64,000 nucleotides of DNA from Escherichia coli (GTDB taxonomy: Bacteria; Pseudomonadota; Gammaproteobacteria; Enterobacterales; Enterobacteriaceae): the NCBI RefSeq assembly GCF_003334255.1, contig NZ_QOWU01000025.1. One strand, given 5' to 3'. Position numbers and translations under genes: made by a program. Below, piece after piece: positions 23,487 through 34,734 of this stretch (the stretch's first letter is position 1; each line of letters begins with the position of its first letter). Below the pieces are notes generated by a model. The model did no database searches and had not been told where the DNA came from. It saw nothing but the letters and a program-made list of their open reading frames with translations.

Positions 23487-23849
23487 GGGGCTGATTCTGG
23501 ATTCGACGGGATTTGCGAAACCCAAGGTGCATGCCGAGGGGCGGTTGGCCTCGTAAAAAGCCGCAAAAAATAGTCGCAAACGACGAAAACTACGCTTTAG
23601 CAGCTTAATAACCTGCTTAGAGCCCTCTCTCCCTAGCCTCCGCTCTTAGGACGGGGATCAAGAGAGGTCAAACCCAAAAGAGATCGCGTGGAAGCCCTGC
23701 CTGGGGTTGAAGCGTTAAAACTTAATCAGGCTAGTTTGTTAGTGGCGTGTCCGTCCGCAGCTGGCAAGCGAATGTAAAGACTGACTAAGCATGTAGTACC
23801 GAGGATGTAGGAATTTCGGACGCGGGTTCAACTCCCGCCAGCTCCACCA
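23487..23849 (+). ncRNA. ssrA: tmRNA (SsrA), 363 nt
   Basis: Begins ggggctgattctggattcgacggg, contains the tag-peptide reading frame region, ends with tRNA-like gcgggttcaactcccgccagctccacca; 215 nt downstream of smpB. Confidence 0.95.
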
Positions 23850-23977
23850 ATCATGATTGGACGGTGTAAGGACAACACCAACAAAAACAGGAAGTTAGAA
23901 GTCTCAGCAAAACACCGACCAGACGGTGAGGAGACATAAAAGGATACGCAAAGGAGCCGCGGCTCCTGGTAACATGA

Positions 23978-24003
23978 AAGCCCACAGATGTGGGCTTTTT
24001 CGT
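23978..24003. terminator. Hairpin terminator between the ssrA 3' flank and the ypjA stop
   Basis: aaagcccacagatgtgggcttttt: hairpin with T5 on plus strand, lying 10 bp beyond the ypjA stop on the minus strand. Confidence 0.45.
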
Positions 24004-24009
24004 TGATGG

Positions 24010-32260: not shown

Positions 32261-34513
32261 ATGTTTTCTATAAAACCAGGACCCAGAAATTTACCTATCG
32301 ACAACCCCACATTGTTATCATGGAACATTACTGACGGGGATCTAAATTCCAAATTAAATACATTAGAATATCTAAACTGTATAACAAATATTATTAATTC
32401 TTGTGGAGTTTACCCTCAAGGATTAAAAGACAGAGAAATTATATCAACTTTTCACGCAGAAAAAGTTATTAATGATCTGTTAAAAAACGATTATAAAATT
32501 TCCCTTTCTCCAGATACAACTTACCGAGAGTTGAATAAAGCAGCACAGCGTAGCATTACAGCGCCAGACAGGATAGGAGAAGAAAAAACATAGGTTTATC
32601 AACGAGATACAATGATTGAAAGAGGTGATAACAGCGGTGTTTATCAGTATGGTCGTGCTGAACATTTCACCCACATTATATCTGACAAACCTTCCCCAAA
32701 AGATAAATATGTTGCATATGCTATTAACATTCCTGACTATGAGCTGGCAGCCGATGTATATAATATTAACGTGACGTCACCTTCCGGACAGCAAGAAACA
32801 TTTAAAATATTAATCAATCTAGAACATCTACGGCAAACACTTGAGCGTAAATCTCTTACTGCTGTTCAGAAATCACAATGTGAAATCATCACCCCCAAAA
32901 AACCTGGCGAAGCGATTCTTCATGCTTTTAATGCCACCTACCAGCAGATCAGAGAAAATATGTCTGAATTTGCACGTTGCCATTATGGGTATATACAAAT
33001 CCCTCCAGTGACAACTTTCCGCGCCGACGGACCAGAAACTCCCGAAGAAGAAAAGGGTTACTGGTTTCATGCTTATCAACCCGAAGATCTTTGTACCATC
33101 CATAATCCAATGGGAGATTTGCAGGATTTTATTGCATTGGTTAAAGATGCTAAAAAATTTGGTATCGATATCATTCCTGATTATACCTTTAACTTTATGG
33201 GAATTGGGGGTAGTGGTAAAAATGACCTGGATTATCCCTCTGCTGATATACGAGCGAAGATCAGTAAAGATATAGAAGGTGGTATCCCTGGCTATTAGCA
33301 AGGTCAGGTTTTGATTCCATTCATTAAAGATCCAGTAACAAAAGAACGTAAACAAATCCATCCAGAAGATATACATCTCACTGCAAAAGACTTCGAAGCA
33401 AGTAAAGATAACATCTCTAAGGATGAATGGGAAAACCTCCATGCATTAAAAGAAAAGCGTTTAAATGGAATGCCTAAAACAACACCCAAAAGTGACCAGG
33501 TTATTATGTTGCAAAATCAATACGTTCGTGAAATGCGAAAATATGGCGTACGAGGTTTACGTTATGATGCGGCAAAACACTCAAAACATGAACAAATAGA
33601 AAGATCAATAACCCCACCGCTTAAAAATTATAATGAGCGGTTACACAATACTAACTTATTTAACCAAAAATATCATAAAAAAGCCGTTATGAATTACATG
33701 GAATATCTGGTAACTTGTCAGTTGGATGAACAACAAATGTCATCACTGCTTTATGAAAGAGATGATTTAAGCGCCATTGATTTTTCATTGCTCATGAAAA
33801 CGATAAAAGCCTTTTCATTTGGTGGAGATCTTCAAACCCTTGCATCAAAACCGGGTTCCACAATCTCAAGTATCCCATCAGAAAGACGGATATTGATTAA
33901 CATTAACCACGATTTTCCTAACAATGGTAATCTTTTCAATGACTTTCTATTTAACCATCAACAAGATGAACAATTAGCAATGGCATATATAGCCGCTCTG
34001 CCGTTCAGCAGGCCTTTAGTTTACTGGGATGGCCAAGTATTAAAATCAACGACTGAAATTAAAAATTATGATGGGTCCACGCGTGTCGGCGGTGAGGCGT
34101 AGCTTAATAAAGGTTGCTCTACCTATCAGCAGCTCTACAATGAATTCCACGCATTATATATAGATAAAGCAGGAATATGGAGCGCATTTGAGGGTGTATC
34201 TGCAACTAAAAACGTTCTGGCCTTTAGTCGTGGGGATTCTGTGAACATTAATCACTCTCCTCATGATGGACTAGTTATAATAAATAAAGGAAACGAAGAA
34301 GTTGAAGGTACCTGGCCTAACAAATTGCAACCTGGAATATACAAAAACATGGGGAGTAATAGCGTTAACATTATTATTAATAATACCCGAAAAATTATCC
34401 CCCCTGGTAAAGTATTTACGCTTAGAGGCGGAACTCTAAATATCAATATTCCTGGGCGTAGCGCTCTTCTTTTAGGGAAAACAGGAGAACCGCCGAACTA
34501 TCTCTATTTATAA
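32261..34513 (+). pseudogene. ygaQ: Alpha-amylase (GH13) family gene, 751-codon frame interrupted by three in-frame TAG codons (ygaQ-like)
   Basis: Four consecutive ORF-track ORFs (32261..32593, 32612..33298, 33311..34102, 34241..34513) are all in frame 2; I translated the three gaps and found only TAG at 32591-3, 33296-8 and 34100-2, no frameshift; GH13 region II motif GLRYDAAKH at about 33545-33580; AGAGGA RBS before the first ATG; final stop TAA. Confidence 0.8.
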
Positions 34514-34734
34514 TTTAATGTTATATCTGCCCCGATAAAACGGGGCAGATAATATGTTTAGTTTACTAACGGTCATTTTGCAGTGAAGCCATTTACTGTT
34601 TTTTATCGACCAGATAATCTGTTCTCTAATGTTAACTCCCCCTAACCTGTTGCTTTAGTTATTCATTTCCTGTCTCACTTTGCCTTAATACCCTACGTTA
34701 AATGTTACTAATTTGTTGCTTTTGATCACAATAA

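Follow-up and report, generated by a model that had tools for sequence, protein, structure and literature searches.

A reading frame of gene length that is interrupted only by amber codons raises the question of whether it belongs to a dead gene or to one that is still expressed through its stops. Such a frame lies in the stretch of Escherichia coli DNA analysed here (64,000 nucleotides, referred to as the window). The first-pass annotation had described it as an alpha-amylase-family gene of 751 codons that ends on TAA and is broken by three in-frame TAG codons (followed by G, C, and C, respectively), with pseudogene decay as the default reading and amber suppression or stop-codon readthrough as alternatives. 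This description of the sequence held in every part: translation returned the single frame and its terminal TAA, with no other internal stop; the four open-reading-frame pieces were reproduced by ORF listing; the frame is colinear with intact alleles, free of frameshifts; and the ribosome-binding site AGAGGA, at 8-nt spacing from the ATG, and the GH13 region II motif GLRYDAAKH, 3' of the first two TAGs, were both located (Table 1). The remaining five frames of the same interval contain 39–86 stops at a G+C content of 37%, which indicates that the frame is genuine and recently coding rather than a product of chance. A promoter scan gave 8 sigma-70-like sites versus 11.9 expected in shuffled sequence, and thus no excess.

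Table 1. Features of the ygaQ locus and its surroundings, in window coordinates
Feature	Position	Strand	Remarks
tRNA gene, CAT anticodon (PGAP ileY)	31626..31701	-	upstream of ygaQ
ypjCB pseudogene, same A+T-rich islet	29502..30875	-	one TAG at 30393-30395, CAG>TAG; flagged 'internal stop'
Shine-Dalgarno-like AGAGGA	32247..32252	+	8 nt 5' of ATG at 32261; read from sequence
ygaQ pseudogene, GH13-like	32261..34513	+	751 codons, three ambers
Codon 108	32582..32583	+	Gly (GGA) in intact alleles; Glu (GAA) in window; Arg (AGA) in K-12, EF7-18-51, G1/2
W111* (TAG, codon 111)	32591..32593	+	TGG in intact alleles; G>A transition at 32592
W346* (TAG, codon 346)	33296..33298	+	TGG in intact alleles; G>A transition at 33297
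Region II GLRYDAAKH	33554..33580	+	putative nucleophile Asp436, codon 33566-33568
Glu481 codon (in MEYL), putative region III general acid/base	33701..33703	+	invariant in alignments A1 and A2
His550-Asp551 codons (NHD, GH13 region IV)	33908..33913	+	invariant in A1; at least 90% conserved in A2
W614* (TAG, codon 614)	34100..34102	+	TGG in intact alleles; G>A transition at 34101
Terminator-like G+C-rich hairpin	34524..34551	+	11 nt past TAA; 11-bp stem, weak T tail; consensus match only

The interval corresponds to ygaQ of E. coli, a pseudogene locus that has already been catalogued. As in K-12, it is preceded by ileY and followed by glaH(csiD)/lhgO/gabDTP. Nucleotide identity with the ygaQ of K-12 strains is 99.8%, and both the window and K-12 NCM3722 carry TAG at codons 111, 346, and 614. 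The pseudogene status of K-12 ygaQ, as given in the first-pass annotation, is correct: PGAP marks the gene as pseudo with an 'internal stop' in NCM3722 and also in G1/2, a natural isolate nearly identical to the window. The window allele is itself of the natural-isolate type, not K-12. An older annotation divided the K-12 locus into ygaQ and an adjoining ygaR (PMC4725251), and ygaQ, which contains H-NS-repressed promoters, has been grouped with horizontally acquired genes (PMC7229825). The ileY tRNA and ssrA form the borders of an A+T-rich islet. Over 22 kb, 7 of the 9 differences between the window and G1/2 fall inside the 5-kb pseudogene islet (p = 8e-4).

What has been lost in the window can be judged from alleles that retain the complete frame. 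Of 23 E. coli alleles sampled, 9 are intact at 750 codons, that of strain HS (WP_000491435.1) among them; an intact ygaQ is also present in E. albertii. Pfam searches with the HS allele matched PF00128 weakly (E = 5e-4) and PF02806 (Alpha-amylase_C; E = 9e-6), and NCBIfam alpha-amylase models gave only matches far below their cut-offs. An AlphaFold model of the intact allele based on a 40-sequence alignment reached a pLDDT of 86 and a pTM of 0.89 (a model from a 3-sequence alignment, with a pLDDT of 42.6, was discarded). The predicted layout comprises an N-terminal domain of ~215 residues, an alpha-amylase catalytic domain, and a C-terminal beta domain. The top PDB matches in Foldseek were all alpha-amylases (E ~1e-22, target TM 0.73–0.79). 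Across the 40 aligned family sequences, D436 and E481 do not vary, and conservation of H550/D551 is at least 90%; the D436 motif aligns with GFRYDAAKH of Bacillus alpha-amylase, and region I reads DYTFNF, in which the Asn is kept and Phe stands in place of the usual His. By general knowledge of GH13 enzymes, Glu481 is presumed to be catalytic. The family is small, consisting of Escherichia proteins and a handful of metagenome proteins at 33–39% identity. Based on the structural model, intact YgaQ is predicted to adopt a GH13 alpha-amylase-like fold with the catalytic Asp/Glu/Asp, and intact alleles probably have an enzymatic function.

The alignment of intact alleles shows that the ancestral codon at all three TAGs is TGG (Trp), each altered by a single G>A transition. 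Sequence probes across 5426 complete genomes detected W111* in 977, W346* in 1074, and W614* in 2396, compared with TGG at codon 614 in 1632. The most widespread of the three, W614*, is probably the oldest, although the order of mutation is itself deduced; W111* is the least frequent. Amber alleles occur in wild isolates from humans, goose, seawater, and chicken. Wild isolates also carry the allele type of the window, and G1/2 and BR1220 are examples of natural isolates with the triple-amber allele. The three ambers are old natural polymorphisms that predate the laboratory. A strict nested order of 614, then 346, then 111 was rejected, since some alleles have W111* as their only amber and others combine it with W614*; W111* also occurs without W346* and/or W614* (L011, L028), and such combinations require recombination or recurrence. 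The stop haplotypes 000, 001, 011, 111, 100, and 101 were all observed, which by the four-gamete test indicates recombination. Allele L011 is a mosaic, K-12-like in its 5' part and HS-like in its 3' part.

The first-pass annotation had reasoned that frameshifts in close relatives or neutral evolution of the downstream segments would speak for plain decay; frameshifts and relaxed constraint were both found. The K-12-like strain EF7-18-51 carries the same three TAGs plus an inserted A at nt 1751, and other ygaQ alleles have frameshifts of +T at 1640 and -A at 1193. Sister alleles also bear IS insertions, 5' deletions, and an 81-nt internal deletion, and an independent amber of the O157 lineage, Q413*, lies at a CCAGG Dcm site in 304 genomes. 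Intact alleles are under purifying selection, with dN/dS values of 0.06–0.21 between them. Private substitutions, which are small in number and drawn in part from mosaic alleles, are distributed as 32N:20S in broken alleles versus 41N:69S in intact ones (Fisher p = 0.004), and those of the three-stop clade as 6N:2S (p = 0.004). The relaxation extends to the downstream segments: N:S counts in broken alleles are 8:9, 12:9, and 6:1, where intact alleles have 7:22, 13:29, and 13:15, the 6N:1S being that of the segment past W614*. Two further nonsense hits among ~16 substitutions are not unusual (P = 0.24, with 5.9% of substitutions nonsense).

Identity of the locus, the PGAP flag, and relaxed constraint support the default reading of an alpha-amylase-family pseudogene equivalent to K-12 ygaQ. 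With a probability of about 0.93, ygaQ is an ordinary, already annotated young pseudogene that is decaying neutrally and whose Trp-to-stop ambers have been reshuffled by recombination. The argument that a dead gene would not usually show nonsense lesions alone while keeping its initiation signals and catalytic motif found no support. These features persist because the pseudogene is young: only 31 of 2253 positions separate the window from the intact allele of HS, a divergence of ~1.4%. On this reading, ygaQ is an A+T-rich GH13 alpha-amylase-like gene, gained horizontally, that many E. coli strains and E. albertii keep intact under purifying selection. Three independent TGG>TAG transitions have inactivated it in the lineage to which the window belongs (natural isolates of phylogroup-A type, together with K-12). 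W614* probably came first, and intragenic recombination has mixed the ambers into several combinations, including the triple. In a suppressor-free cell, translation would stop at codon 111 and release at most a 110-residue N-terminal fragment, and full-length product is expected to be absent. The clean remainder of the frame would reflect the short time elapsed, with ygaQ drifting neutrally while sister alleles are already gaining further lesions.

Alternatively, the three UAGs could act as leaky gates that permit a little full-length enzyme to be made, leaving ygaQ functional at low dose. Such a scheme would be in keeping with a frame that is otherwise intact, with its ribosome-binding site, D436, E481, and D551 preserved, and with stops in the window's ygaQ that are exclusively amber. 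A survey arguing that in-frame stops in bacteria are often read through, with dN/dS kept below 1 (PMC7918605), also counts in its favor. The stops, however, are not conserved; intact alleles have TGG at the orthologous positions, and the ambers are polymorphic within the species. Constraint is relaxed in the broken alleles even downstream of the stops, and alleles of the same clade have gone on to acquire IS insertions, deletions, and frameshifts. E. coli cells that lack a suppressor read through a single UAG at a basal rate of about 1e-4 to 1e-2; with three sites in series, full-length product would amount to at most ~1e-6. Moreover, near-cognate insertion at codon 614 would substitute Trp614, which is invariant among Escherichia and metagenome homologues. 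An Rfam search of 28.5–35.5 kb for a recoding RNA returned nothing but the tRNA. Given stops that are not conserved, relaxed downstream constraint, and no recoding element in the region searched, the suggestion that readthrough gates expression found no support and is considered highly improbable.

The other proposal is that the ambers became fixed in strains with an amber suppressor and persist thanks to it, for which rpoS(Am)/supE44 of early K-12 lines offers a precedent. Many K-12 laboratory lines (WG1, NCM3722, C600, DH1, DH5alpha, JM109, and HB101) carry the tRNA-Gln CUA allele, and in such supE strains some Gln-substituted full-length YgaQ is conceivable. The rpoS amber allele is suppressed, at least in part, by supE44, and the origin of supE has been traced to the early laboratory strain Y10 (PMC4444293). 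Probing of the 5426 genomes, with supE as the only suppressor covered, detected a supE-type tRNA-Gln(CUA) in 157, almost all of them laboratory K-12 derivatives, against ygaQ ambers in 977–2396 genomes that include wild isolates. The window allele, with its four ygaQ differences and ssrA directly before ypjA, is not K-12, and the 64-kb window contains no tRNA with a CUA anticodon. The disparity between supE and amber counts leaves the suppressor-background proposal without support, and it is regarded as extremely improbable.

A further possibility concerns the first piece of the frame rather than the whole. W111* might have created a new gene, the 110-residue flap nuclease represented by the ASKA clone 'YgaQ', that aids tolerance to mitomycin C. 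Over-expression of the 110-residue K-12 fragment is reported to make cells resistant to mitomycin C, and the fragment to have nuclease activity; both properties disappear when D25/D27 and a C-terminal Glu-Arg-Lys triplet are mutated together (PMC4725251). These observations suggest that the fragment may not be inert, and the ribosome-binding site and start codon of the first piece are intact. The Arg of the triplet (codon 108), however, is a novelty of the K-12 lineage, since every intact allele has Gly at this position and the window has Glu; the window and K-12 types have undergone distinct non-synonymous G>A hits at this codon, just 5' of the first stop. Changes in the segment before W111* that are private to broken alleles amount to 6N:1S, and W111* is the rarest of the three ambers. 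The mitomycin C phenotype stems from plasmid over-expression, and the promoters reported inside ygaQ are H-NS-repressed (PMC7229825). A native role for the fragment is judged to be very unlikely, and caution is warranted in treating the 110-residue ASKA 'YgaQ' as a native protein, as Arg108, one of the residues mutated in that study, is a substitution confined to K-12 within a frame that is decaying.

One property of the lesions fits the pseudogene reading less well. All three ygaQ stops are amber and all lie at Trp codons, with an expected amber share of nonsense paths of 0.23–0.375; the resulting P(3/3 TAG) of 0.017–0.053 was counted against plain decay. The nonsense lesions encountered in adjoining genes of the islet are likewise all amber, which plain neutral decay does not predict, and in the neighborhood as a whole 7 of 8 independent nonsense lesions are TAG and none TGA, with ochre expected to be the commonest. 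It is conceivable but doubtful that frequent nonsense polymorphisms are preferentially amber in this A+T-rich islet, perhaps genome-wide. If so, this would point either to an unrecognized G:C>A:T context bias (C>T at 5'-CA in CAG/CCA) or, in natural populations, to UAG nonsense alleles being selected against less strongly than those with UAA or UGA. A literature search on stop-type bias among natural nonsense polymorphisms returned nothing decisive, and the amber excess is at most a weak residual oddity that is not established. Two mutational sources were considered. Dcm sites are classic amber hotspots in lacI, where 5-methylcytosine deamination converts CCAGG to CTAGG, but this source was rejected for the window as none of its three ambers lies in CCWGG (ancestral contexts CATGGG, ATTGGC, and CGTGGC). 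Replication-strand asymmetry, which would favor G>A on the + strand with TGG as the main target, was set aside because the spectrum of broken alleles is symmetric (G>A 12, C>T 13); the + strand of the window has negative GC skew, and substitutions in the three-stop clade comprise six G>A and two C>T.

The pseudogene status of ygaQ was already known and is now confirmed by population evidence, with few consequences for biology at large. The locus nevertheless offers a worked example of how a multi-nonsense null allele is assembled, both stepwise and by recombination, while alleles with zero, one, two, and three stops still segregate. In supE, RF1-deficient, or genetic-code-expansion strains, ygaQ constitutes a chromosomal frame with three UAGs that is potentially readable.

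These findings can be set against several known systems. With GH13 alpha-amylases such as Bacillus subtilis AmyE, Pseudoalteromonas haloplanktis AHA, and the animal-type enzymes, the predicted YgaQ protein shares the common A/B/C-domain fold, region II (GxRxDAAKH), the Asp/Glu/Asp residues, and Alpha-amylase_C; in contrast to them, it has an extra N-terminal domain of ~215 residues without a family match, and identity over the Foldseek alignments is only 14–19%. K-12 ygaQ resembles the window in locus, synteny, and all three ambers, but 4 positions separate the two (among them, in the window, G108E where K-12 has G108R, P469Q, and one synonymous change), and in the window, unlike in K-12, ypjA comes directly after ssrA without an intervening prophage. 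The Dcm hotspots are matched only by Q413* of O157 (GACCAGG>GACTAGG), from which the window's three ambers differ. Finally, rpoS(Am)/supE44 resembles ygaQ in being an in-frame chromosomal amber of K-12 that is partly readable by tRNA-Gln CUA (PMC4444293), whereas the ygaQ ambers predate the laboratory, form a series of three, and are common among wild strains that lack a suppressor.

The region is the ygaQ locus, and the first-pass annotation was right to take it by default for the K-12 pseudogene of that name. Its counterpart in K-12 NCM3722 is flanked by the tRNA gene ileY and glaH-lhgO-gabD, in the same gene order as here, and bears a PGAP pseudogene label, [quoted passage not shown] The region was matched in 4124 of 5426 complete E. 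coli genomes and was at least 80% covered in 3367 of these. The window is not K-12 itself. Four positions in ygaQ differ between the two, ypjA lies directly after ssrA in the window, and across 22 kb the window is essentially identical to strains isolated in nature, their sources being human faeces, a Canada goose, seawater, and chicken.

Translation reproduced every detail of the proposed frame, a single reading frame broken by three TAG codons, which are its sole internal stops. The four ORF pieces named earlier are all present in the ORF listing of the window, and the ribosome-binding and catalytic motifs were both found. The stretch has 37% G+C, and each of the other five frames contains 39–86 stops, which indicates that the near-open frame represents a genuine, recently coding gene.

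Features in and around the ygaQ locus (window coordinates)
Feature	Position	Strand	Basis or remark
ssrA	23487-23849		
ypjA	24010-28590	-	intact 1526-codon frame
Recombinase remnant	~28998-29165		annotation of G1/2, a near-identical natural isolate
ypjCB	29502-30875	-	one 458-codon frame, single amber (codon 161)
ypjCB Q161*	30393-30395	-	TAG from CAG; common to K-12 and HS
tRNA	31626-31701	-	tRNA-Met (CAT anticodon) per ARAGORN; tRNA-Ile per PGAP
AGAGGA	32247-32252	+	8 nt 5' of ygaQ ATG; read from sequence
ygaQ pseudogene frame	32261-34513	+	translation; 751 codons, ends on TAA
TAG, next base G (W111*)	32591-32593	+	translation; codon 111
TAG, next base C (W346*)	33296-33298	+	translation; codon 346
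GLRYDAAKH codons	33554-33580	+	translation
TAG, next base C (W614*)	34100-34102	+	translation; codon 614

Nine of the sampled E. coli strains, HS among them, have an uninterrupted allele of 750 codons, and the orthologue of E. albertii, also intact, is 738 aa long with 60% identity. When 1.8 billion representative proteins were scanned in full, only a handful of full-length relatives emerged (33%–39% identity), beyond which the next matches were ordinary alpha-amylase-like proteins at ~30% identity. Pfam matches to the intact allele were weak (Alpha-amylase, residues 264–519, E = 5e-4; Alpha-amylase_C, residues 649–738, E = 9e-6), and a PDB sequence search matched Bacillus and Ruminococcus alpha-amylases with region II aligned. 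In a 40-sequence alignment, D436, E481, R434, and K439 never vary, and conservation of H550/D551 reaches 90% or more. The top PDB matches of an AlphaFold model built on this alignment (pLDDT 86, pTM 0.89) were all alpha-amylases (E ~1e-22, target TM 0.73–0.79). Taken together, the Pfam and PDB matches, the conserved residues, and the model predict that the intact product would be a divergent GH13-type enzyme; no family match was obtained for its extra N-terminal domain (first ~215 residues). Pairwise dN/dS values of 0.06–0.21 among intact alleles indicate that ygaQ is functional where it is intact.

The sense codon behind each amber was determined by allele alignment, a check that the first-pass annotation had proposed. 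At all three sites the orthologous codon is TGG (Trp) in every allele without the given stop, so each amber arose by a G>A transition at position two of its codon. Inspection of the sequence context of all three revealed no Dcm site. When the homologues from E. coli, E. albertii, and a metagenome were aligned (three sequences), Trp614 proved invariant, and conservation of Trp111 and Trp346 was confined to Escherichia. Alleles were counted with 31–36-nt probes, for which seeding was possible only if the diagnostic base matched. Among the 5426 genomes, 977 carried W111*, 1074 W346*, and 2396 W614*, with TGG at codon 614 in 1632. A sample of 23 full-length alleles, taken in even steps along the similarity ranking, plus one metagenome contig comprised nine alleles without a stop and others with W614* only, W614* and an extra T at nt 1640, W346* and W614*, all three stops, all three stops and an extra A at nt 1751 (a K-12-like strain), W111* and loss of an A at nt 1193, or W111* and W614*. 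The resulting haplotypes at sites 111/346/614 (000, 001, 011, 111, 100, and 101) include those of L011 and L028, two alleles with W111* but without W346* and/or W614*, and the four-gamete test was positive for the pairs 111/346 and 111/614. L011 is moreover a mosaic, K-12-like to ~nt 708 and HS-like beyond, which together with the presence of all four gametes indicates that null alleles have been shuffled by intragenic recombination.

Decay by nonsense alone, as first described, holds for the window allele but not for the locus, which carries frameshifts, IS insertions, and deletions elsewhere. In the O157:H7 lineage, a CCAGG Dcm site has been hit to give Q413* (CAG>TAG; 304 genomes), several strains have IS3, IS903B, or IS1 insertions in ygaQ, and in O26 and others the 5' half is gone, adjoining an IS3. 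One sampled allele, on a Logan contig (SRR4430015; L029), combines a 5' truncation with an in-frame 81-nt deletion (gene nt 1139–1219). At bases 1–30 of that contig, the truncated 5' end abuts TGTCTGGAGATTCAGGGGGCCAGTCTA, which resembles an IS2 terminus.

Substitutions restricted to broken alleles (32 nonsynonymous:20 synonymous) were compared with those restricted to intact alleles (41:69; Fisher p = 0.004), and the private changes of the three-stop clade, at 6:2, are near the neutral 3.75:1. The segment-wise analysis of constraint, run as N:S counts on small numbers, showed a shift towards relaxation in three of four segments (broken versus intact: segment 2, 8:9 versus 7:22; segment 3, 12:9 versus 13:29; segment 4, after W614*, 6:1 versus 13:15), with no detectable difference in the first, before W111* (6:1 versus 8:3). 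Of the nine positions at which the window and G1/2 differ over 22 kb, seven fall inside the 5-kb pseudogene islet at 29400–34513 (binomial p = 8e-4), a clustering compatible with neutral drift in the islet or a local rise in mutation rate. Nonsense changes should make up 5.9% of substitutions, at which rate the chance of two further stops among the ~16 substitutions of the lineage is 0.24. All of the selection evidence fits the neutral decay of a young pseudogene; ygaQ here is an ordinary, already-annotated, evolutionarily young pseudogene.

A native function of the 110-aa first piece would be suggested by the reported mitomycin C resistance and nuclease activity of over-expressed W3110 "YgaQ," both abolished when D25/D27 and the C-terminal Glu-Arg-Lys triplet were mutated together (PMC4725251). 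Such a function is nevertheless highly improbable. The Arg of the K-12 triplet is encoded by codon 108. This codon, which precedes the first stop by three, is GGA (Gly) in all intact alleles, GAA (Glu) in the window (32582–32583), and AGA in K-12, G1/2, and EF7-18-51, differences that reflect either a tandem change or two separate G>A hits to the codon. Given Gly in the intact alleles and Glu in the window, Arg108 arose recently, as a change specific to its lineage, in a probably relaxed segment.

Two alternatives to plain decay had been raised. Fixation of the ambers in a suppressor background is contradicted by their distribution: a probe for supE-type tRNA-Gln (CUA) matched 157 of the 5426 genomes (wild-type probe, 5424), and the ygaQ ambers, which also occur in wild isolates, outnumber those matches six- to fifteenfold. 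Among the matches listed, nearly all supE genomes are laboratory K-12 derivatives (C600, DH1, DH5alpha, J53, JM109, HB101, TG1, WG1, and NCM3722), and supE44 (glnX44) has been traced to Y10, an early strain of the K-12 laboratory line (PMC4444293). The sole listed match outside such derivatives is NZ_CP122768.1 (3933396–3933431), from the apparently natural pig isolate E. coli ETEC1738 (5.58 Mb). Sub-percent production of a triple Trp>Gln YgaQ is conceivable in supE laboratory strains, with no bearing on the origin of the alleles. Low-level readthrough gating expression fared no better. The window encodes no tRNA with a CUA anticodon, its RNA genes being only tmRNA, an ileY-type tRNA, and tRNA-Arg, and no Rfam element besides tRNA lies near ygaQ. 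At a single UAG, basal readthrough runs at roughly 1e-4 to 1e-2, so that three sites in series would yield essentially no full-length YgaQ.

Among the nonsense paths open to ygaQ, ambers should account for a share of 0.23 under a uniform model, 0.26 under the empirical spectrum, or 0.375 if transitions alone are counted, which gives a probability of 0.017–0.053 for three TAGs out of three and 0.12–0.16 for three stops of any one type. A wider tally of the neighbourhood (window ~22000–44000 and related loci), in which lesions were taken regardless of type, adds the O157 Q413*, explained by its Dcm site; ypjCB Q161*; ypjCB Q119* in B2 strain AR Bank #0349 (TAG from CAG), where the Q161* site is not the one hit; ypjA S719* in G1/2 (TAG from TCG; window 26435 G versus T); and glaH Q80* in TUM1223 (TAA from CAA). 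The eight independent lesions across strains are thus seven TAG, one TAA, and no TGA; TAA is the commonest type expected in A+T-rich genes. Before the glaH ochre entered the tally, the joint probability of seven ambers in seven was ~1e-4 under the empirical model. With the Dcm lesion and the three ambers that prompted the tally left out, the evidence under the transitions-only model is weak (hand estimate, p ~0.1). It is improbable that the amber excess reflects a real bias.

The A+T-rich islet that contains ygaQ (~28.7–34.6 kb; 36%–39% G+C versus ~50% in the flanks) also contains a recombinase remnant and the ypjCB pseudogene and has the look of a decayed integrative element. H-NS-repressed intragenic promoters have been reported inside ygaQ, a gene that the same paper counts among those acquired horizontally (PMC7229825). 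The conflicting Met and Ile calls for the tRNA at 31626–31701 are typical of ileX/ileY, in which the CAU anticodon is lysidine-modified. In HS, the interval corresponding to the ssrA–ypjA region (window 23487–28719) holds IS3, IS1, and phage-tail remnants instead, and at ssrA K-12 has the CP4-57 prophage.
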